Positions 6,130 to 15,386 of a DNA stretch of 64,000 nucleotides are shown here, one piece after another. The notes beneath the pieces were generated by a model. It was not told the DNA's origin and ran no database searches. It saw nothing but the letters and a program-made list of their open reading frames with translations. Source of the DNA: Gaiellaceae bacterium (GTDB lineage Bacteria > Actinomycetota > Thermoleophilia > Gaiellales > Gaiellaceae); assembly GCA_037720595.1 (NCBI GenBank), contig JBBJLW010000016.1:1751-65750 (forward strand). Direction: 5' to 3'. The number at the start of each line of letters is the position of its first letter. Within the stretch, counting starts at the first letter, position 1. The translations under genes and the position numbers were made by a program.

Positions 6130-7545
6130 GTAGCGTCAGGGGTCATTCCCGAACTGTGAGTGTGTGGCTGTCCCGTCTGGGGCGTTTGTCAGGTTGGTGT
6201 CGGTGCTCTTTGGTTGTGACTCGATTCTCGAATGACCCGCTGGGGCGGTGTCTTTCCAGTGATGTGTCCGATCAGAGAGTCCGGTACCGGCCTGGCGCCC
6301 GCTTGCTGGCCTGATCAGAAGCCTGTCCGCGTTGTGAGCGCGTGACCCGTCACAGTTATGCCGCCAGCGGTTTCCACCCCAGACCGGCACCGGTTCGTGT
6401 CCCCCAACGCTTGGGCTGGAGGTCGGTGTTCGGATGCTCGCAGATCAGCTGGACTACATCGTCGGTGTCGATCCACACCGCGACTCGCACGCCGTCGCGG
6501 TCGTGCACGTCCGAAGCGGCGCGGTCGTCTTCGAGACGAACGTCGTCGCTAACAGCGACGGCTACGCACAGGCGCTGAAGCTCGTCGACCGGCACGCGCC
6601 ATGCCGGCGTGCGTTCGCGGTTGAGGGGACAGGCTCGTTCGGTGCCGGTCTCACGCGTTTCCTGACCGAGCGGGGTGAGCGGGTGCTCGAGGTCGGCAGG
6701 CTGCGCCGGGAGCGCCGCTCCGGCGGCAAGAACGACGCGCTCGACGCTGTCCGTGCCGCTCGCAGCGTCCTCGCTGGGCAGCGGCCGGCGACGCCACGGG
6801 CGGGTGGTGAACGCCAGGCTTTGCAGGCCCTGGTGGCCGCACGAGAAGGAGCCGTGAACGCGAAGCGTGCCGGGCTCTGCCAGCTGCGCGATCTGCTGAT
6901 CACAACCCCGGAGCCGGTGCGCAGCGAACTGCGGCCGCTCACGCGTGCACGGCTTTTGCAGCGGCTTGCAGCAACCCGACCCGACGGTCGACGCGATCCA
7001 GAGTTGCGCGGCAGCATGCTGGCGCTGCGCTCGATCGCCCGACGGGTGCTGCAGCTGACCGCCGAAGAGCGTGAGCTCGCCCGCGAGATCGAAACGCTTA
7101 CCCGCAAGCTCGCACCGCAACTGCTCGACCAGCCCGGCGTCGGTCCGCACGCCGCAGCTCAGCTCGTCCTGTCGTGGTCACACCGCGGCCGGATCGAGTC
7201 GGAGGCCGCATTCGCAAGGCTCGCCGGCGCAGCACCGATCCCCGCCTCCTCCGGCCAGACAGTCCGCTACCGGCTCGACCGATCAGGCGACCGCAAACTC
7301 AACCGCGCACTGCACATGATCCTCGTCACGCGCAAGCGCTCACACCCCGCCACGATCGCCTACATCGAACGACGCGTGCAAGAAGGCAAGACCCGACGCG
7401 AAGCAAGCCGCTGCCTCAAGCGCTACCTCGCCCGCAGCCTCTACCGCCTCCTCGAACACGGAGCGCCACTGGCCACTTGACAGACATAGAAGCATCACTG
7501 GCGCATGCCGGTGCCCTGGAGCCCCGCATCCCGCCGGCGTAGGTC
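6130..7545 (+). mobile_element. IS110-family insertion sequence (ends approximate)
   Basis: A single DEDD-type transposase gene with about 300 nt of non-coding DNA upstream and about 65 nt downstream, wedged between two minus-strand GNAT genes. No terminal inverted repeats seen, as expected for IS110. Confidence 0.6.
6434..7480 (+). CDS. IS110 family transposase/recombinase
   Basis: N-terminal DEDD domain (IVGVDPHRDSHAVAVV, AFAVEGTGSFG, KNDALDAVRAA). C-terminal Transposase_20-like part (GVGPHAAAQLV...PASSGQTVRYRLDRSGDRKLNRAL). Confidence 0.92.
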   Translation: MLADQLDYIVGVDPHRDSHAVAVVHVRSGAVVFETNVVANSDGYAQALKLVDRHAPCRRAFAVEGTGSFGAGLTRFLTERGERVLEVGRLRRERRSGGKNDALDAVRAARSVLAGQRPATPRAGGERQALQALVAAREGAVNAKRAGLCQLRDLLITTPEPVRSELRPLTRARLLQRLAATRPDGRRDPELRGSMLALRSIARRVLQLTAEERELAREIETLTRKLAPQLLDQPGVGPHAAAQLVLSWSHRGRIESEAAFARLAGAAPIPASSGQTVRYRLDRSGDRKLNRALHMILVTRKRSHPATIAYIERRVQEGKTRREASRCLKRYLARSLYRLLEHGAPLAT

Positions 7546-8109
7546 TCACGGCACGACCCTGCGCATCACACAGTTCCTCTTGCCCTTGGGCCGCACATAG
7601 CTGAAGCCGGCCCGCTCGTACAGGGACCGGGTGCTGTTGTAGAGGACGGACACCTTTTGGCCGCCGGTGTCGTGCGGGTACCCCTCCACAACTCCGCCGC
7701 CGGCCTGCGCAATCAGATCCACGGCACCACGCAGAGCGACCGCCGTCACGCCTTTGCGCCGGTACTTCTTGTCCACAAAGATGCAAGTGATCCTGTAGTC
7801 GGTCGGCCTGTCGAGAGCGGCCTCGTACTCCTTGCGGTGGTGGATGTTCGGCAGTTCCTCCGGGGTGCCGTACTGGCACCACGCCACTGCCTCATCACCG
7901 TCGAACACCAGCGCAGCGTGTGCGCGGCCCTCCTCGACCAACCGCTTCTTGAGGGCGTGGTTGCCCTCGGCGGTGAACGTCTTCTCGGCATGGAAGGTGT
8001 GGAACCAGGTGCACCAACAGCCACCGAACACACCGTTGTGCCGCTCGACGAGCCGCGCGAATGCGTCCCAGGTATTCGCATCGAGCGGCTTGACCACGTA
8101 GTCCGTCAT
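7546..8109 (-). CDS. GNAT family N-acetyltransferase
   Basis: Start trimmed to MTDYVVKPLD (ATG 8109..8107). Motif IFVDKKYRRKGVTAVALRGAV. Confidence 0.8.
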   Translation of the reverse strand: MTDYVVKPLDANTWDAFARLVERHNGVFGGCWCTWFHTFHAEKTFTAEGNHALKKRLVEEGRAHAALVFDGDEAVAWCQYGTPEELPNIHHRKEYEAALDRPTDYRITCIFVDKKYRRKGVTAVALRGAVDLIAQAGGGVVEGYPHDTGGQKVSVLYNSTRSLYERAGFSYVRPKGKRNCVMRRVVP

Positions 8110-8240
8110 GGGATCTCCTTGGCTCTCGTGCGGGCTAGCGTAACGCGGCACTTCGCGAGCCGTGAGCGCGAAGGGTCGAACGGAGGAACACCCCGTTTCT
8201 CTGGCGTCATTCGGGAACGCTCGCCCAGGCGATCGGCGCT

Positions 8241-8783
8241 TCAGGGAGCGTTCGGAGCTGCCACCACCGGGCCAAGAAGACGCAACACCAGGCCCTCCTG
8301 ATCCTCGGTCATCTTCGGCATGTCGCAGAACCCCTTCCGTGCGGCCCACACGCGCCGTGTCAGGCGAGAGACAGTCATCGTGACGCCGGAGAGCCGACTT
8401 AGCCACGGCGCGACGTAGAAGATCCGCTCTCCCGAATGCCGGAGAAGAAACGCGGAGGCCCCCTCGCCCTTCGACAGGTACCTCCCGAGCTTCGACATAT
8501 AGTGCCGCAGCCGACCTGCCTCGTATTTCCCCTGTTCCAGGAGAGCCCGCTCGTAGGTGGAGGTATGCCCGAGCCCCTGCGCATAGGCGGCAGACTTCAG
8601 CGACCGGAAGAACTCCCGAGCGAACGCCTTCTCCAGAGCCGTTGTGTGACCGAGGACGAAGTGCAGATGCGGAACCCCTCGTGACTGATCCTCCAGCACC
8701 CACAGCAGCAGGCTAGGCCAGGCATCCTCCGCCCAGCCCTCCCGACGCAGCTGACGTATTGCCGCCGTCCGGGCCGTGTTCAA
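8241..8783 (-). CDS. replication initiator fragment (HUH / RepSA-like), probably N-terminally truncated
   Basis: SRGVPHLHFVLGH fits an HUH-type motif. RLRHYMSKLGRYLSK has two YxxK-like motifs. The HUH motif lies only about 40 aa from the ORF start. Confidence 0.5.
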   Translation of the reverse strand: MNTARTAAIRQLRREGWAEDAWPSLLLWVLEDQSRGVPHLHFVLGHTTALEKAFAREFFRSLKSAAYAQGLGHTSTYERALLEQGKYEAGRLRHYMSKLGRYLSKGEGASAFLLRHSGERIFYVAPWLSRLSGVTMTVSRLTRRVWAARKGFCDMPKMTEDQEGLVLRLLGPVVAAPNAP

Positions 8784-9518
8784 CGTGTCACGTCGACGCG
8801 CCGACCACAGCCGCCGCTGATCCTCCGCGACTGACTCCAGTACACGACATCCACCCGGCCCCGAGCACGGGACATCAGGCCCGTGGGAGCATTTCGTTTG
8901 ATCCCACCACCACGGCTCCGCGCTTCACGTCAGAACGCCCTGCAGAACCTTCGACTCCGTTCCGTAGACCTCGCAGTACGCGTCCAGCGCGCCGTGAACT
9001 ACGGCCCGGAACGACGAAGCCCAGGACGGCCGAACCGCGTCACACCACCGACGCCCACACGACCGACGCTCCCTTCGGATGACCTTCCCGCAATCACCTG
9101 GACACCACCGCTCAGAGCGGGATCGAGACCACTTCCGCGGATCGCGTCGAGAACAGCCTCACACCGCGCGAAAGCCTGGCGCTCCGCCGCCGTGTGTACG
9201 TGCCGATACCTCCCACGCCCCCGAGTCGTCCGTTCCCCTGACGCGGGAAGAGCCTTCGAGCGGGCCTCAAACGCCACCAGCTGGTCGGGATGAACGCGCT
9301 CAGACACCAAATCGCCCCAGGCACTCCCACCCGCATGGCGGTGCCGCTGTGGGTCGCATGCGACCCACGAACGCCACCGCCGCGACCCGACTGCGACCGC
9401 AAGCGCCAGGCTCGGTCGCAAACCGGCATCTTTTCCCGCGAAGCTTTTCGCACCCTTTCGCAGGCTTTGTCCCTGCGCAGCGCGATTTCTCGCGCCTCTT
9501 CGTACCTTCTCTGCAGAG

Positions 9519-9544
9519 TGGAGGCGGCGGGAATCGAACCCGCG
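9519..9544 (-). repeat. 26-bp direct repeat identical to the 3' end of ssrA (distal att site)
   Basis: TGGAGGCGGCGGGAATCGAACCCGCG is identical to 15024..15049. The flanks diverge immediately on both sides. Confidence 0.9.
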
Positions 9545-9662
9545 ACACGTTCCAATCGTGTGCGTAGGTGCCAAGTGCGGGATTCGGACGGCCTACGCTT
9601 CGTCGCGGCGACGCCGTAACGCACGAGGAAGTCGCGCACACGCAGCGTCAGTAGTGAGCCGA

Positions 9663-10661
9663 CTAGACGCCGCTGGGCGCGTCTCCGTACTGAAACAGCG
9701 CCTCCGTCAGCACCTCGCGCTGATCATCGGGCAGTGACGCCTCCGTGTAGTTCGGGACGACGACGAAGCTCGACGCCTGCCCTGCGGCCTGCTCGCCTGC
9801 CCAATGCCAGGAGTAGTTCGTGAAGAAGACGGCGCTGAACGGGTCCGGATTCTCCTCGCTTGCGGGCCCGAGGTGCTCGAGTGCGGCCTCGTGGAGCTCA
9901 CGCATCCAGTCCTCGAATGAACGCTGGCCGGCCTCGGGCAGGTTCAGGTCGATGCAGACGACGAAGGGCCGACCGTCCACCTCCTTCTCGAGCGCCGCGT
10001 CCATCAGATTCCCGACGTCGAGCTTGACAGTGTCCACCTCTGGCGCCTCGCCTGCGCGCCCGAGGATGCCAGGACGGTGGCGGCTCTTCGCCTCCACCGC
10101 GATCTCCGTCCCGATGGCCGGATGGCGTGCGATGAACTCGGGCAGGCGGCGGTCGGTTTCGGTGATCCAGTCGATCGTGTAGCCAGCGCGGGCAAAGACC
10201 GCGGCGACCGCGAGTTCGTAGCGAGCTCCCTGGAACTGGTCCGGGTGGCCGAGCCGCTTGAAGATCGGGTCACCGTCGGAGACGTACCCGTGGTGCAGGA
10301 GCGTGTAGACGTCGTAGGACAGGCAGATGAGCGGCCACAGCTCGCCGGCCGCCGTTGACGAGTAGACGCCCTCGGCCTCCTGCCGTTTGTCAATCGCCGA
10401 GCCACCTTTCCGGACCTCCATGAGCGCGTCCATCCACTGCGCGATCAAGTGCCGCTTCTCGGGCTCGAGCGCCCGCTGCTGCTCCGCCCACCCCGTGCCC
10501 AGGGCCTGAAGGAGCACGGCGACGTAGAACTCCTGTTTCGTCTCGTTCGGCGGCCGGAAGTGCAGCCGGCTGCCCACAGCGCGCACGCGCTTGCCCTGCC
10601 AGACAGCGTCGATCTCGAGGCGGCCGACGAGCCGGCCCTGGTCGTCACGGATCGGGCTCAT
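9663..10661 (-). CDS. hypothetical protein with a PD-(D/E)xK-nuclease-like motif set
   Basis: 332 aa, last gene of the operon. The segment GARYELAVAAVFARAGYTIDWITETDRRLPEFIARHPAIGTEIAVEAKSRH fits E...PE-x15-ExK. Confidence 0.6.
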   Translation of the reverse strand: MSPIRDDQGRLVGRLEIDAVWQGKRVRAVGSRLHFRPPNETKQEFYVAVLLQALGTGWAEQQRALEPEKRHLIAQWMDALMEVRKGGSAIDKRQEAEGVYSSTAAGELWPLICLSYDVYTLLHHGYVSDGDPIFKRLGHPDQFQGARYELAVAAVFARAGYTIDWITETDRRLPEFIARHPAIGTEIAVEAKSRHRPGILGRAGEAPEVDTVKLDVGNLMDAALEKEVDGRPFVVCIDLNLPEAGQRSFEDWMRELHEAALEHLGPASEENPDPFSAVFFTNYSWHWAGEQAAGQASSFVVVPNYTEASLPDDQREVLTEALFQYGDAPSGV

Positions 10662-10682
10662 GCTGGAACGGTAGTGGCTGAA

Positions 10683-11525
10683 CTAGGCGGCGACGGGTGC
10701 TGAGTTCCGAAAGTCGCGCAGCGTGAGGATGACGAGGTCCTTGATGAAGCCGTCGAGCCGCTTCGCCTTGCGTAGAGCCTCTGCCTGATGGTTCTCCGTG
10801 ACAATCGCCTCTACGTACGGGGTTGCTGCCGAGATGACGATGTCGAACGCGTCCGAACGCGACGGCTTGCGCGTCGCGTCCGCGTAGAACTTGTGCCAGA
10901 CCGTGTACGTGGTCGCCTTGAGGGATGGAAAGGCGGCCATCTCCACGGCTTCGTTGTTGTCGACAGCCTCTTCGGCGAAGCTCCGCTGACGCATAGCAAG
11001 CTGCGAGAAGGACGAGATCTCAACAAAGGCGCGGATCTCGGATCGACGATACGTCTCGGCTTCAGGCGGGAAATTGGCCACGAGGGACGTGACTCCCTCG
11101 ACGATCCCGTCTTGAGAGGCATTCCAATAGCGCTCCTGCTCCCCGAACACCTCGTCTTCCTCGGCGCGGCAGAGAACGCGCTCGAGATCCATCCCTTCAC
11201 CGCCGAGTGGAGAGAAGCCGAGCAAGGATGGATCGATACGCGAGGGATCTGGATAGCAGCCCGTCTCCTCCTCCAAGAGCTGCTCGTGACTCTTCAGCAT
11301 CATGCAGGGGATCATCCGGAATAGCTCGAGGAAGCGTCGGTAGACATCCGGGCTGCGACGCAGTTCGAGCACGGTGAAGAGCGAGAAGCACGGCACGAAC
11401 GCCGGCTTGGCATCAATCGACCAGGTCAGGAAGTGACGAAGGACCTGCTCGCGCTTAACCATCTCGCTAAGCGCGTTTGTGTCGAGAAGACAAAGTCGAT
11501 AGTCGGTGCCGTTGAGCGTCACCAT
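10683..11525 (-). CDS. PIN-like nuclease-domain protein with a large internal insertion
   Basis: 280 aa. Candidate PIN acidic residues are in LLDTNALSE (D15), TVLELRR (E54) and SDAFDIVISAATPYVEAIVTEN near the C-terminus, with about 150 aa between them. Confidence 0.6.
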   Translation of the reverse strand: MVTLNGTDYRLCLLDTNALSEMVKREQVLRHFLTWSIDAKPAFVPCFSLFTVLELRRSPDVYRRFLELFRMIPCMMLKSHEQLLEEETGCYPDPSRIDPSLLGFSPLGGEGMDLERVLCRAEEDEVFGEQERYWNASQDGIVEGVTSLVANFPPEAETYRRSEIRAFVEISSFSQLAMRQRSFAEEAVDNNEAVEMAAFPSLKATTYTVWHKFYADATRKPSRSDAFDIVISAATPYVEAIVTENHQAEALRKAKRLDGFIKDLVILTLRDFRNSAPVAA

Positions 11526-11588
11526 CGTTCAGACGGTACCCGCCGCGGTGGACACGAGAGTCGGCGGTGGCGATCGAAGACCAGACGA

Positions 11589-12173
11589 TCAATCCATCGG
11601 CGGATCGAACGTGCCGAGGTCGTCCTCGAGCCAGCCCGAGTAGAACCAGACAAGCTTACGCTGCAGCTGCTGCGCCCCGCGGTATGCGAGCTGCGAGACC
11701 CGCTGACCCTCGAGGAACGCGTGGTGGAGCGTCACCGGCATGTACAGGAGCGCCACACTCTCCGGCAACGTGAACTCCAGATCGTCGGCGGCAAGCGGCG
11801 GCATGTACATGTAGTTGATCAGATGGTCGAAGCGCCGAAGGTCCGCGAGCGCCGTCTCCTTGACGACGCCGCGCTCGACGAGCTCCGCAAGCGGAATCAC
11901 TGGCACGAGCGTTCGAACCGGGTGACCGTAGCCCGCCGCACCCTGAGCCCCGAGGGAGCAGCTCGGCGTGATCAGCATCGCCGGGCCGAACTCCAGCGGG
12001 CCGCTCAGGAAGCGTCGGCTGACTCCACCCTCTGCGTCGTCGACCACGAGCTCGTCGGCCGGCAACGGATACGCGAGCGGCACGTCGCGGAACAGGTCGC
12101 CCTGGCTGAGGAGCTCGACGCGATCACACTCGTAGTACTCAGCGTCGGAAGGTCGTTCGGGTCGCGGCGACAT
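11589..12173 (-). CDS. hypothetical protein (no recognisable family)
   Basis: 194 aa, with 44-nt and 63-nt gaps to its operon neighbours. Notable segments are SQGDLFRDVPL and AMLITPSCSL. Confidence 0.55.
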   Translation of the reverse strand: MSPRPERPSDAEYYECDRVELLSQGDLFRDVPLAYPLPADELVVDDAEGGVSRRFLSGPLEFGPAMLITPSCSLGAQGAAGYGHPVRTLVPVIPLAELVERGVVKETALADLRRFDHLINYMYMPPLAADDLEFTLPESVALLYMPVTLHHAFLEGQRVSQLAYRGAQQLQRKLVWFYSGWLEDDLGTFDPPMD

Positions 12174-12217
12174 CGGCGGGCCAGCCTATCGGCGGCCCCG
12201 GTCGACTTGTCCTGGCC

Positions 12218-12481
12218 TTACTCGGTGGCGTCGCCGAAGACGAGCCGGCCGCTGCGCTTGCGGCCGGGGTTCACGACTGGACCCTCGGTCGCGGGCGCCA
12301 GCTGCTCGAACATCTCGGCGCGCAGCCGCTCGACGTCCTGCGCAGCGAACCGCCTGAAGCCGCTGCCGGGAAGGTGAACCGCGCGCAGCACACCGCGGCT
12401 CTCCCAATTGCGGATCGTGTTCTCGTGCACGCCGAACGCTCTGGCTGTGTCACGGACGTTGAGGAGTTCCTTGGTAGTCAT
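12218..12481 (-). CDS. MerR/excisionase-family HTH DNA-binding protein
   Basis: 87 aa, LNVRDTARAFGVHENTIRNWESRGVLRAVHLPGSGFRRFAAQDVERL. Confidence 0.75.
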   Translation of the reverse strand: MTTKELLNVRDTARAFGVHENTIRNWESRGVLRAVHLPGSGFRRFAAQDVERLRAEMFEQLAPATEGPVVNPGRKRSGRLVFGDATE

Positions 12482-12490
12482 CGTTCACGG

Positions 12491-12519
12491 ACTATAGCGC
12501 TCGATGTCGCCTTTGTCGA
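12491..12519 (-). promoter_or_regulatory. putative sigma-70-type promoter (TCGACA-17 nt-TATAGT) for the HTH operon
   Basis: On the minus strand TATAGT ends 9 nt before the ATG at 12481, implying a very short leader. It lies in a lower-GC 348-bp intergenic region. Confidence 0.35.
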
Positions 12520-12829
12520 GTATGTTGACTTTGTCTACTACCGCCTATCGTCCAGTGACGGCCGATCATCAAGCGGGAACCACCGCCATGACTAGCGAGA
12601 CACAGATGCATCATTCGATGATGAGCTCCTCAGACCCGACTTCCAGCGGCGATCGGAACAGTTGGTCAACCCATCGTCATCGTTCCGATCGACGGGAGGC
12701 ATCCGCGCTCCGTGAGACCGAGCTCAGTTTTCGGGAGGGCATTTCAGCATCAGGATGCATCTGTGTGACTCCTGCTATCGAGGTGAGTTCGACGCCGCCG
12801 CTTCGGGCGAGTGGCGCCGTTCGTTCGAG

Positions 12830-13321
12830 CTACCGCTCGAGGCTGATTCCGCGGCTTCGTTCGTGCTCGAGCTCGATGAGCCGGCGGAGGCGGCGCAGCT
12901 TCTCGGAGTCTTCGTCGCGGCCAAGAGCGGCGAGCATCCGCGCGAGGTCACCTGGTGATGCGACGGAGGGACGCACGCCCTGCCCCAACGGCTCGCGGTT
13001 CGCGGCGCGGCGGAGGTCGTCCCAGCCGCGCGTGCCCGCCGGCGTGGGGACGATGGTCACGTCACCGAGCGGTGTTGTGACCGTCGTCGGCTCGCTGGGG
13101 TCGACGTCGGAAGCCGCAGCGCCGATCTCGTCGAGCGCGGCCGAGAGCCGGCGTAGGTTCTCCGGTCGCGTCGAGGGGGCGATGTCGATGCCGATCGTCG
13201 TCTCTCCGGTTCCATGGATGACGCGGGCGACGCCGCCGATGACGACGAAGGACACGTGGTGGCGTTCCAGAGCGGCGAGCACGCCCATCGGGTCGAACGA
13301 TCTCGAGCGCGGTCGTGTCAC
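12830..13321 (-). CDS. nucleotidyltransferase-fold-like protein (possible toxin/antitoxin partner)
   Basis: 163 aa. VSFVVIGGVARVIHGTGETTIGIDIA resembles the hGG..x..DxD minimal NTase motif, but only one Asp is retained. Confidence 0.55.
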   Translation of the reverse strand: MTRPRSRSFDPMGVLAALERHHVSFVVIGGVARVIHGTGETTIGIDIAPSTRPENLRRLSAALDEIGAAASDVDPSEPTTVTTPLGDVTIVPTPAGTRGWDDLRRAANREPLGQGVRPSVASPGDLARMLAALGRDEDSEKLRRLRRLIELEHERSRGISLER

Positions 13322-13608
13322 TTCGTGGTCGCTCTCAGGAGGTCATGGAACCGTTCCTGGGGCGAGAGCCGGAGGTTCGCACGTAGCTCCGCGTCGTCGG
13401 CTTCATTCGTCGCGCGCGGCGCGACGGCGACGGAGAGCTCGAAGCCGCACGCCTCGACGAGCTCCCGCAGTGTCTCGAAGCTCGGCTGCACCGCCCCGCG
13501 CTCCCAGCGTGCGATCTGAGCCCGGTCCTTTCCGACGCGGTCACCAAGCTCGCCCTGCGAGAGACCGGCAAGCAGTCGCGCCTCTCGAATCAGCAATCCA
13601 CTCGTCAC
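13318..13608 (-). CDS. XRE-family helix-turn-helix protein
   Basis: 96 aa, IREARLLAGLSQGELGDRVGKDRAQIARWERG. Its stop overlaps the downstream start by 4 nt. Confidence 0.8.
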   Translation of the reverse strand: MTSGLLIREARLLAGLSQGELGDRVGKDRAQIARWERGAVQPSFETLRELVEACGFELSVAVAPRATNEADDAELRANLRLSPQERFHDLLRATTK

Positions 13609-13669: not shown

Positions 13670-14788
13670 TTGAGCCAACCCGCCTTCGTCCAGCTCAGCT
13701 TGGACATGGCCGCGCCGGAGGCGACCAGCGTCCCACCCCGGTCGCTCCAGCCTCGGCCGGCGACGCTCCGGAAGCGCGCTCGCTTGACGCTCGGCGACGC
13801 CGCACGGATCATGCGAGAGGCCGTGAAGGACAAGTCCTACCGGGCGACGCCCGTCGGTCTGCTCGTCGGGCGCTACCTGCGCTGGTTCCGGAACGAGTGG
13901 GGCGCGACGGCCACGACGATCCGCGACTACGAGGCGATCCTCGCGCGCATGTCCCTCACCCTGGCTGACAAAGACCCGCTCGAGGTCACGGTCGACGACC
14001 TGCGAGACGTGATCGATCTCTGGGCCGACCGAGAGGCACGGACTCGCGCGAAGGTGACGTCTGTGGTGCGGGCATTCTGGGCTTGGGCTGAGGAACAAGA
14101 TCAGGTGCCGTTCTCACCAGCCGCAAAGCTGCGGCGACCACGGGCACCGCGAAAGACGGCGCCGCTTCTGCCGCAAAGCGCCGACGCCCGACTTCTCAAC
14201 GCCGCGACGACAGCGCGCGATCGCGTCGGTCTGCTCCTCCTGCTTGACCTCGGCATCCGACGAAGCGAGTTGACGGGCATCCGCCCGAATGACATCGACT
14301 TGGGCCGTCGTCAGATCACCGTCTTCGGTAAAGGCCAGAAGAGCCGCGTGATTCCCCTCCGCGGCCGCCTGGTGCTGGAGATCGAGGCGTACCTGCTGGA
14401 GCCTCTGCCGCTGCTGGAGCGGACACCGGAGCCGGACGACTTCATCCTCTACCCCGAGAAGCGGACGGGCGGAGGGCGGCTCCTAGCGGCGTATCCCAAG
14501 CGCCGCATGAGCGGGCCGACCGTGCACCGCTGGTGGTATCGCCACGCAGCGGCGGCGGGTCTGGTCGGCGCGGGCATGACGAGCGGCCTGAACATGCACC
14601 GCGCTCGGCACACGTTCGCCACCGACCTCCGGCGCGTCGCAGACCTCGGCGCGGCCTCGCAGGCACTCGGGCACTCCGACCTCTCGACCACGGCGTCGAT
14701 CTACGGTCACTACGACCTCAGTGACCTGGAGCGCGCGATGGACGCTCTCGCCAAGGCGCGGCGGTCGAGCGAGCGCGAAGAGCCGTAG
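13670..14788 (+). CDS. int: tyrosine recombinase / site-specific integrase
   Basis: 372 aa. HRARHTFATDLRRVADLGAASQALGHSDLSTTASIYGH carries the catalytic HxxR...Y. It lies next to ssrA. The TTG start is uncertain; an internal ATG lies at 13706. Confidence 0.9.
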   Translation: MSQPAFVQLSLDMAAPEATSVPPRSLQPRPATLRKRARLTLGDAARIMREAVKDKSYRATPVGLLVGRYLRWFRNEWGATATTIRDYEAILARMSLTLADKDPLEVTVDDLRDVIDLWADREARTRAKVTSVVRAFWAWAEEQDQVPFSPAAKLRRPRAPRKTAPLLPQSADARLLNAATTARDRVGLLLLLDLGIRRSELTGIRPNDIDLGRRQITVFGKGQKSRVIPLRGRLVLEIEAYLLEPLPLLERTPEPDDFILYPEKRTGGGRLLAAYPKRRMSGPTVHRWWYRHAAAAGLVGAGMTSGLNMHRARHTFATDLRRVADLGAASQALGHSDLSTTASIYGHYDLSDLERAMDALAKARRSSEREEP

Positions 14789-15023
14789 TGCCGCGTTGGA
14801 TCAGGCTGCGCGTTCGACCTGGAACCGGACTACACGCCGGTGACCAGCACTTCCGACCGGGCGACGAGTTCGTCGTGTCGTACGCCGACGCCGCGACGCT
14901 TCTTCGCGACCGCGGCCGCCGCGCCTTCGACACGGTTGAGGACTACGAGACCGACTCTGAGGAGCCGCCCGACGGAATGCTTTCAATCGGGCAGCCCTCA
15001 GAACCGCTTGGTTGAGCCAAAAA

Positions 15024-15049
15024 TGGAGGCGGCGGGAATCGAACCCGCG
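15024..15049 (-). repeat. 26-bp direct repeat within the 3' end of ssrA (proximal att site)
   Basis: Identical to 9519..9544. It covers the 3' acceptor strand and part of the T-arm of the tmRNA. Confidence 0.9.
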
Positions 15050-15386
15050 TCCGCGGACGCACCGGACAGAACATCTACAAGCGTAGTCTGCGCTTTGGTT
15101 TCGCCCGGCGGCCGGTTCGCAGACGACCTACCGACGGACTAGCCATCCTGCACTGTCGCGCCTCGGGCGATTGGCTCTCCCTCGGCGCCGAGCCCGAACG
15201 TTGGCGCCGCTTACCTGACCTCGGGCCGAGTCAGGAGCGGCGTCGCCAATCCTAGTTTTACCTAGGCAGCGAGTGCGAGATCATTCTTCGCATTTGTTCG
15301 TTTCCCGGTGGATTATCGAGGCCAACCGGGGACCTCGGCTTGCAGCTCTGCCGGAGAACCGACCACGTCGAAACCAGGTCGCCCCC
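15024..15386 (-). ncRNA. ssrA: transfer-messenger RNA (tmRNA)
   Basis: The 5' end GGGGGCGACCTGGTTTCGACG pairs with the 3' end CGCCTCC-A, giving a G3:U wobble. T-arm is GCGGGTTCGATTCCCGC. Internal tag ORF is GCG AAG AAT GAT CTC GCA CTC GCT GCC TAG (..AKNDLALAA). It lies directly downstream of smpB. Confidence 0.9.

Follow-up and report, generated by a model that had tools for sequence, protein, structure and literature searches.

A toxin–antitoxin-like gene pair followed by a replaceable cargo slot on a small tmRNA-associated island of a Gaiellaceae bacterium

Toxin–antitoxin (TA) pairs of the MazEF/CcdAB type that are carried on mobile elements act in maintenance or in abortive infection. Defence-gene hotspots are carried by small integrative elements such as the P4-like satellites described by Rousset et al. 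2022 (PMC9122126), pipolins (PMC11551731) and cargo islands that target tRNA or tmRNA genes, e.g., tycheposons (bioRxiv 10.1101/2020.12.28.424599). Here we describe a locus that recalls both, in a stretch of 64,000 nucleotides (nt) from a Gaiellaceae bacterium (assembly GCA_037720595.1, contig JBBJLW010000016.1, positions 1,751–65,750 of the forward strand; hereafter, the window). On a 5.5-kb island at the transfer-messenger RNA (tmRNA) gene, four open reading frames (ORFs), all on the minus strand, encode a helix–turn–helix (HTH) protein of 87 amino acids (aa) and proteins of 194, 280 and 332 aa, with intergenic gaps of 44, 63 and 21 nt. An earlier sequence-only reading had described this layout correctly and regarded the four genes as one new candidate defence or abortive-infection system. 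Our comparative analyses point to a different arrangement as the probable one: a TA-like core formed by the HTH and 194-aa genes with a conserved promoter and candidate operator, plus two independent candidate defence genes carried as cargo (Table 1).

The distribution of homologues was decisive for this arrangement. In a scan covering one genome per GTDB species, in which Thermoleophilia were represented only by metagenome-assembled genomes (MAGs), 26 species-level loci from Gaiellales and Solirubrobacterales contained a relative of the 194-aa protein (51%–93% identity), and the HTH gene was located directly upstream in all 26. The two genes also occurred together in L001, L002, L006–L012 and L044 (L numbers denote individual loci), and a gene for an HTH_17/MerR protein of 77–131 aa adjoined the 194-aa gene in every locus examined. 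Next to full-length relatives with 34%–44% identity, an HTH_17/MerR gene was again present, in an upstream or a convergent position, and distant relatives on short metagenome contigs (L106–L109) had other gene neighbours. Relatives of the 280- and 332-aa proteins were present in 0/26 of the species-level loci. The closest relatives of the 280-aa protein (85%–91% identity) came after the HTH and 194-aa genes, without a 332-aa gene; in L006–L012 and L044, a copy of the attachment site (att) directly followed the 280-aa gene, and L045 was too short to show this. Metagenome loci encoding relatives of the 280-aa protein numbered 62; two of these, the closest ones, followed the pair, the other 60 lacked it, and a 332-aa relative was found in none. 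The 332-aa protein had an 81%-identical homologue in a different element with YopA, resolvase and integrase genes, and its distant homologues occurred alone, in the vicinity either of STAND-like NTPase and methyltransferase genes or of REase-ARP/PDDEXK_13 and GIY-YIG genes.

These data bear directly on the single-system proposal, in which the HTH protein would regulate, the 194-aa protein would act as a sensor or partner and the two nucleases would be the effectors. The tightly spaced, co-oriented genes behind one recognisable promoter, with no terminator-like site between them, fit such a system, as do the two nuclease-like folds and the mobile-island setting. However, the homologues are not co-conserved, an outcome that the sequence-only reading itself had named as speaking against its proposal. 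Both the 280- and the 332-aa gene are missing from the 26 species-level loci with the pair, and even in the closest sister islands (L006–L012 and L044) the 280-aa gene occurs without the 332-aa gene. The co-occurrence data largely refute a single four-gene system, which now appears hardly tenable. The architecture is, with high confidence, mosaic, consisting of a conserved HTH–194-aa module and then separate cargo genes. Close packing of genes into an operon-like row on an island does not amount to evidence of one system; here, co-occurrence splits the apparent operon into backbone and cargo.

The border between the two parts was sharp. Similarity among sister islands ended right after the conserved PPMD-stop of the 194-aa gene, and the next sequence that they had in common was the att copy; copies of this att core, which derives from the tmRNA gene, flanked most of the 26 loci and were frequently arranged in tandem. 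With cargo ORFs picked by longest-ORF selection (filtering by G+C content at third codon positions lost real cargo genes), about a dozen or more distinct slot contents were recognised by inspection over the 26 species loci. The contents seen among the sister islands as a whole were the 280-aa gene alone, a nucleotidyltransferase, a pair of 298 and 248 aa, unrelated proteins of 280, 282 and 381 aa, a fused AriA–AriB gene of the PARIS anti-phage system (L023), an 825-aa AAA_16-TPR (STAND-like) ATPase (L040), an ECF sigma factor plus a partner, and HNH_5 and FRG proteins. The slot of L033 held nothing, with just 199 bp between the 194-aa stop codon and att. Given these varied contents, which include known defence genes, the slot carries diverse cargo, and the HTH–194-aa pair is therefore independent of any particular downstream gene. 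The slot thus shows the pattern of a hotspot, i.e., conserved flanks around variable content that includes a known defence system. The L023 AriAB gene was split by an apparent frameshift into ORFs of 139 and 496 aa, where sequencing errors are possible.

The same border could be viewed differently, as the junction within a modular defence system whose constant sensor or adaptor is the 194-aa protein and whose interchangeable effectors are the downstream genes, by analogy with systems that pair a constant core with a variable effector. The variable region starts exactly at the 194-aa stop codon, and several downstream genes encode nucleases or ATPases. In L040, this stop codon overlaps the ATG of the ATPase gene (8552–8560, GACTGATG), which suggests translational coupling of the two genes in that lineage, and a similar ORF in L041 begins 4 nt after the stop codon (8555–8575, read by eye). 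However, at least one island (L033) is cargo-free, the cargo includes both a complete autonomous system (the AriAB fusion) and a non-defence ECF sigma factor, and the 280- and 332-aa genes each occur alone in many other genomes. A modular system of this kind is accordingly quite improbable, and an independent core followed by replaceable cargo remains the preferred explanation of the border.

Within the slot of the window, an imperfect 15-nt direct repeat was found at the TAG stop codons of the 280- and 332-aa genes (TAGTTCAGCCACTAC at 10671–10685 and TAGTCGGCTCACTAC at 9651–9665 on the minus strand, 12/15 identical). The first copy marks the point where similarity to the closest sister islands (L044 and L006) stops, and the 280-aa gene of the window loses the longer C-terminal tail of its sisters. 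This repeat may be a footprint of the insertion of the 332-aa gene.

The core pair was preceded by a highly conserved control region. The TCGACA-17-TATAGT promoter noted earlier was recovered as the single sigma-70-like match in positions 9400–13000, where shuffled sequences predict 0.4 matches. Across 12 sister loci, the 70 nt upstream were near-invariant and contained, in order, a palindrome beside the −35 hexamer, the −35 and −10 hexamers and the ATG. The −35 hexamer was near-invariant in these loci; in the −10 hexamer, TATA and the final T were invariant, and the fifth base was C in L026 and L029. The imperfect palindrome, located just upstream of the −35 hexamer, reads GTAGACAAAGTCAAC in the window and GTGGACAAAGTCCAC in the 12-locus consensus, and is a candidate operator for the HTH protein. 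With just 9 nt between the −10 hexamer and the start codon of the HTH gene (ATG at 12481), the core transcript is probably leaderless. Farther upstream, approximately 110 nt from the HTH start, a 17-nt element (TGCATCTGTGTCTCGCT, 12594–12610, minus strand) was kept in L001, L006, L020 and L033, nearly kept in L024 and absent in the others; neither an ORF nor an Rfam family accounts for it.

Both core genes were also strongly conserved. Among the loci where SmpB could be compared, identity to the window was 82%–92% for the HTH protein and 82%–90% for the 194-aa protein, versus 60%–77% for SmpB and 34%–76% for the integrase; over the sister Gaiellales islands, the 194-aa range was 82%–93%. All four genes were under purifying selection, with ratios of nonsynonymous to synonymous substitution (dN/dS) of 0.05–0.2 against sister copies; the values were 0.05–0.07 for the HTH gene and 0.07–0.13 for the 194-aa gene. 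Because synonymous divergence in the core pair was substantial (dS 0.3–1.3) and dN/dS was low, its conservation reflects strong constraint and not only recent transfer.

The assignment of the 87-aa protein to the MerR/Xis-type HTH proteins was borne out by profile matches to MerR_1 (1.2e-8) and HTH_17 (3.7e-6) in Pfam and to the excisionase-type profiles phrog_66 (1.2e-7) and TIGR01764 (0.005). It also matched the PADLOC model mad1 (1.8e-10), which is a generic small HTH model. In the alignment, the DNA-binding domain is followed by a conserved C-terminal tail (...APATEGPVVNPGRKRSGRLVFGD).

Searches of Pfam, NCBIfam, PADLOC (PADLOC-DB v2.0.0), PHROGs and PDB sequences returned nothing significant for the 194-, 280- and 332-aa proteins, in agreement with the earlier remark that the combination was not recognised as any named system, and no description of these protein families or of the islands was found in the literature. 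The 194-aa protein has an identical counterpart, annotated as hypothetical, in a Gaiellaceae MAG and belongs to a small family (196 representatives at 50% clustering in a profile search). Its structure was predicted with AlphaFold2 from an alignment of 48 diverse members, giving a mean predicted local distance difference test (pLDDT) score of 86.5 and a predicted template modelling (pTM) score of 0.82. When this model was compared with the PDB using Foldseek, the top 43 matches were all MazF or CcdB (best E-value 1.7e-3, probability 0.90–1.00, target-normalised TM score 0.50–0.74), and the protein is therefore predicted to adopt the SH3-like barrel fold of MazF/CcdB. Compared with MazF, the model contains a long, low-confidence insertion in the loop between the first two core strands, together with extra helices. 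What had been listed as an unknown partner of the nucleases is thus a predicted MazF/CcdB-fold protein that forms a two-gene module of its own with the HTH protein. As for its conserved-looking motifs, G25 and D26 of SQGD proved invariant, and alone so, across the family, whereas the Cys of ITPSCSL was not conserved in distant relatives. A role as an E2-like Cys enzyme, raised by a match to UFC1 (E-value 0.08–0.2), was rejected, as this Cys is not conserved and the model is a MazF/CcdB barrel.

The 194-aa gene was frameshifted or truncated in approximately seven of about 30 loci (L034, L035, L036, L037, L039, L042 and L044). These disruptions could represent toxin decay, which is frequent among TA toxins, or MAG assembly errors.

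For the 280-aa protein, the PIN-like acidic residues pointed out in the sequence-only reading held up well. In 38 sequences (55%–90% identity), D15, T16, N17, E54, E81, E87, D225, D228, T243 and E244 were invariant, and relatives down to 21%–30% identity retained the LLDTNA motif. The AlphaFold2 model (pLDDT 88.8) shows alternating strands and helices in an order compatible with PIN, with a helical insertion of approximately 110 residues at about residues 114–214. Its best PDB matches in Foldseek were the PIN domains of Utp24/Fcf1, SMG6 and SMG5 (E-value 0.2–0.5 over 60–90 aligned residues), with probabilities of 0.66–0.87 for Utp24/Fcf1 and 0.23–0.35 for SMG6/SMG5, and its top match in BFVD was a viral ‘PIN like domain’ protein (E-value 0.018). 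Pfam PIN and PIN-like profiles did not recover the window protein and matched 1/38 relatives (PF01850, E-value 0.046). The protein is likely PIN-like, as judged from its invariant residues and model, and is a candidate member of the PIN superfamily. One relative was located between hsdS and hsdM (PDB matches of 1e-52 and 3e-108), another adjoined an MmeI-type enzyme (7e-196), and the family ranged from Actinomycetota to low G+C contigs. Inspection of the ORF lists of 31 relatives showed neighbours that changed from one locus to the next, and neither a recurrent small partner nor a VapB-like antitoxin was found. This context would be expected of a stand-alone gene tied to defence islands.

The 332-aa protein can reasonably be read as a PD-(D/E)xK nuclease based on its motif. 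In 46 sequences (down to 33% identity), E149, P174-E175 (LPEF), E190, A191, K192, D238 and N240 were among the invariant residues. The E...PE...ExK arrangement proposed earlier was thus supported, apart from the spacer between PE and ExK, which is 14 and not 15 residues long. Sub-threshold matches to Mrr_cat were obtained for 17/46 relatives (best E-value 0.0022, all below the gathering score) and none for the window protein itself. An N-terminal SEC-C zinc motif was present in 27/46 relatives and missing from the window copy and its closest relatives, and a PDB profile search with the family returned this motif only. The PADLOC models E2, E1-E2 and PDC-S12 matched exactly 27 relatives, the same number as the SEC-C carriers, and these matches are therefore probably driven by the motif; PDC-S01 gave a weaker match in seven relatives at 1e-4. 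When a conserved partner was sought among convergent neighbours, those in L004, L013 and L015 were unrelated to each other. In viral-contig scans, the 280- and 332-aa families each yielded one distant relative only. Relatives of both were found in restriction, defence or mobile-element neighbourhoods, as the earlier reading of a defence-related, mobile setting would suggest. Thus, the two families appear to be uncharacterised members of the PIN-like and PD-(D/E)xK superfamilies.

Several observations weigh against interpreting the region as a TA-like core with defence cargo. The Foldseek E-values of the 194-aa protein are only about 2e-3; it had no Pfam, NCBIfam or PADLOC match at E ≤ 1, no PemK or CcdB profile matched any of the 48 family members, and hhalign of the family against three MazF/Kid sequences gave a non-significant probability of 0.7%. 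In MazF, the catalytic Arg precedes strand 2, where the loop coming from strand 1 ends, and the Thr/Ser follows strand 3; a crude secondary-structure mapping places Gly63 and Pro94/Leu95 at these positions. Counterparts of the MazF Arg/Thr pair are thus not evident by this mapping, and only G25 and D26 are invariant across the family. RNase activity is therefore uncertain, and the protein could be non-toxic. The HTH gene is convergent, not upstream, in two distant relatives, an uncommon arrangement among classical type II TA operons, and the HTH gene of L023 looks frameshifted next to a 194-aa gene that looks intact, although this MAG may have sequencing errors. The L040 and L041 junctions hint that, in some lineages, the 194-aa gene is functionally coupled to the genes that follow it, and the ECF sigma factor shows that the slot is not exclusively for defence. 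Finally, Foldseek support for PIN in the 280-aa protein is weak (E-value 0.02–0.5).

Some of these points would also suit another explanation, in which the HTH protein is an excisionase or transcriptional regulator and the 194-aa protein is a non-toxic factor of the island life cycle, e.g., for excision control or helper-phage interference, that merely shares the barrel. The lack of evident MazF catalytic residues, the excisionase-type profile matches of the HTH protein and the near-constant location of the pair within integrase/att islands are consistent with it, and the pair could be highly conserved because it interacts with a conserved partner from the host or a phage. However, the pair persists in L023, L025 and L029, where tblastn found no match to the window-island integrase in the flank and att is directly upstream, and in L106–L109. 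All top 43 structural matches are TA toxins, and the HTH-plus-tail layout with a promoter palindrome is typical of antitoxin autorepressors. We therefore consider a non-toxic life-cycle role unlikely, and the simpler suggestion that the HTH is just the island's excisionase is disfavoured by the same persistence next to the 194-aa gene. Of the options raised by the sequence-only reading, an island-maintenance module fits the HTH–194-aa pair best.

Under the preferred reading, a TA-like core with independent cargo, the region would work in two parts. In the first (12538–11589), the HTH protein, the MazF/CcdB-fold protein and the palindrome-plus-promoter would form a self-contained module. The HTH protein would bind the palindrome and autorepress the operon, and its C-terminal tail would neutralise the 194-aa protein. 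The toxin would be freed if the island were lost or if a phage shut off host expression, resulting in island maintenance and possibly abortive infection. The balance of evidence leans slightly towards such a type II TA mechanism, for which toxicity, neutralisation and DNA binding are inferred. The second part (11525–9663) would be a replaceable slot from the 194-aa stop codon to att, occupied here by the PIN-like and Mrr-like PD-(D/E)xK genes. Transcription from the core promoter probably continues into these cargo genes, each of which probably acts alone, most likely in defence against foreign nucleic acid.

The island itself was delimited as previously proposed. It is bounded by a perfect 26-nt direct repeat (9519–9544 and 15024–15049), of which the latter copy forms the 3′ terminus of the tmRNA gene (15021–15386; Rfam 178 bits; ARAGORN), and it encodes a tyrosine integrase. 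The HTH–194-aa pair is the signature module of the family to which this small island belongs, whose members integrate at the tmRNA gene in Gaiellales and Solirubrobacterales. Between the core and the integrase lies a second TA-like pair, whose XRE and 163-aa genes overlap by 4 nt; it recurs across many sister islands (50%–75% identity) and seems broken, with pieces in different frames, in L001, L002, L021 and L039. ARAGORN reported a ‘permuted tmRNA’ whose tag peptide is odd, and Rfam gave sub-threshold tmRNA matches (26–27 bits versus a gathering score of 47), at 9068–9608 and 9439–9705 (minus strand); these signals look like echoes of the att duplicate and not a second tmRNA gene. Mobile-element remains span 6434–8783, outside the distal att. 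Three tmRNA-derived att cores were located within 10–16 kb in L001, L006–L011, L018, L020 and L030–L033, and L028 had three weaker att copies, all downstream of the HTH–194-aa pair. Such triple copies indicate that small islands are arrayed in tandem at the tmRNA gene. In L006–L011, the stretch past the second att contained APH and AadA_C aminoglycoside-resistance-type genes.

Table 1. Features of the island and its surroundings. Positions refer to the window unless a locus is named.
Feature	Position	Strand	Basis
IS110-family transposase	6434-7480	+	
GNAT-like ORF	7546-8703	-	
180-aa ORF with weak Rep match and HLH-type motif	8241-8783	-	REP_ORF2-G2P
Distal att repeat, copy of tmRNA 3′ end, closes the island	9519-9544	-	Match with 15024-15049; same core flanks sister islands
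332-aa Mrr-like PD-(D/E)xK protein (predicted), independent cargo gene	9663-10661	-	Invariant motif, sub-threshold Mrr_cat
280-aa PIN-like protein, stand-alone cargo, candidate nuclease or defence gene	10683-11525	-	Invariant residues, AlphaFold2, weak Foldseek matches
194-aa protein with predicted MazF/CcdB fold, candidate toxin, conserved core of the island family	11589-12173	-	AlphaFold2 and Foldseek
87-aa HTH_17/MerR-type DNA-binding protein, candidate antitoxin and autorepressor	12218-12481	-	Pfam profiles, linkage
Promoter TCGACA-17-TATAGT	12491-12519	-	Sigma-70-like match
Imperfect palindrome, candidate HTH operator	12524-12538	-	12-locus alignment
163-aa protein, second TA-like pair	12830-13321	-	Weak DUF6036 nucleotidyltransferase match (E 0.18)
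XRE/HTH_3 protein, 96 aa, second TA-like pair	13318-13608	-	
Tyrosine integrase of the island	13670-14788		Profile search
Fused AriA–AriB gene, slot content	L023 8621-10524		PADLOC 1.7e-22

Our results bring forward three families outside the curated libraries: a MazF/CcdB-like family with an HTH_17 partner, a PIN-like family with a helical insertion that often occurs within restriction–modification loci, and a family combining SEC-C with an Mrr-like domain. All three are concrete candidates, open to testing one gene or one gene pair at a time. Thermoleophilia are a soil clade for which we know of no experimental defence data, and the islands provide a compact natural cargo slot, PARIS included, for mining their defence genes. 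A bolder view, which we regard as speculative and rather doubtful, is that the HTH_17–194-aa pair is an unrecognised MazF/CcdB branch with another active site or target that serves as the addiction and expression platform of undescribed tmRNA mini-islands in Thermoleophilia. Its leaderless, autoregulated promoter would then drive cargo under TA control, and the 280- and 332-aa families would be two new single-gene anti-phage systems.

Comparison with described systems places each component near a known group and apart from its typical members. The core pair resembles MazEF, Kis–Kid and CcdAB in the predicted fold of the 194-aa protein and in its organisation, namely two genes, a small tailed DNA-binding protein, a palindrome at a conserved promoter and a location on a mobile element. 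In contrast to these systems, the 194-aa protein lacks sequence membership and an evident MazF Arg/Thr pair and is approximately 80 residues larger, with a loop insertion and extra helices. Its partner is of the HTH_17/MerR type and not an AbrB-, ribbon–helix–helix- or CcdA-type antitoxin, and the order of the two genes varies in distant relatives.

Likewise, the 280-aa protein shares with PIN nucleases (VapC; Utp24/Fcf1 and SMG6) an LLDTNA motif after strand 1 and acidic residues (D15, E54, D225/D228 and E244) at PIN-typical positions, and its best structural neighbours are PIN domains, with weak scores. It differs from VapC in being twice its size, owing to the helical insertion of approximately 110 residues, and in lacking a conserved VapB-like neighbour. 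The 332-aa family shares E...PE...ExK with Mrr_cat/SEC-C proteins, and the SEC-C motif of the 27/46 members is identical in pattern to the SecA C-terminus; the window copy, in contrast, has no SEC-C, and the large N- and C-terminal regions of the family, known here from sequence alone, match nothing known.

At the level of the whole element, the islands differ from P4-like satellites, pipolins and tycheposons in their host clade, Thermoleophilia, and in their very small size of about 2–7 kb. They showed no genes for capsid hijacking, replication or transfer, the left border of the slot is a TA-like gene, and the slot contents were judged by inspection. They nevertheless share with these elements a conserved backbone, which here consists of the integrase, regulators and the HTH–194-aa pair, and a sharply bounded, rapidly changing slot that can hold PARIS, combined with integration at the tmRNA 3′ end, at times in tandem arrays.

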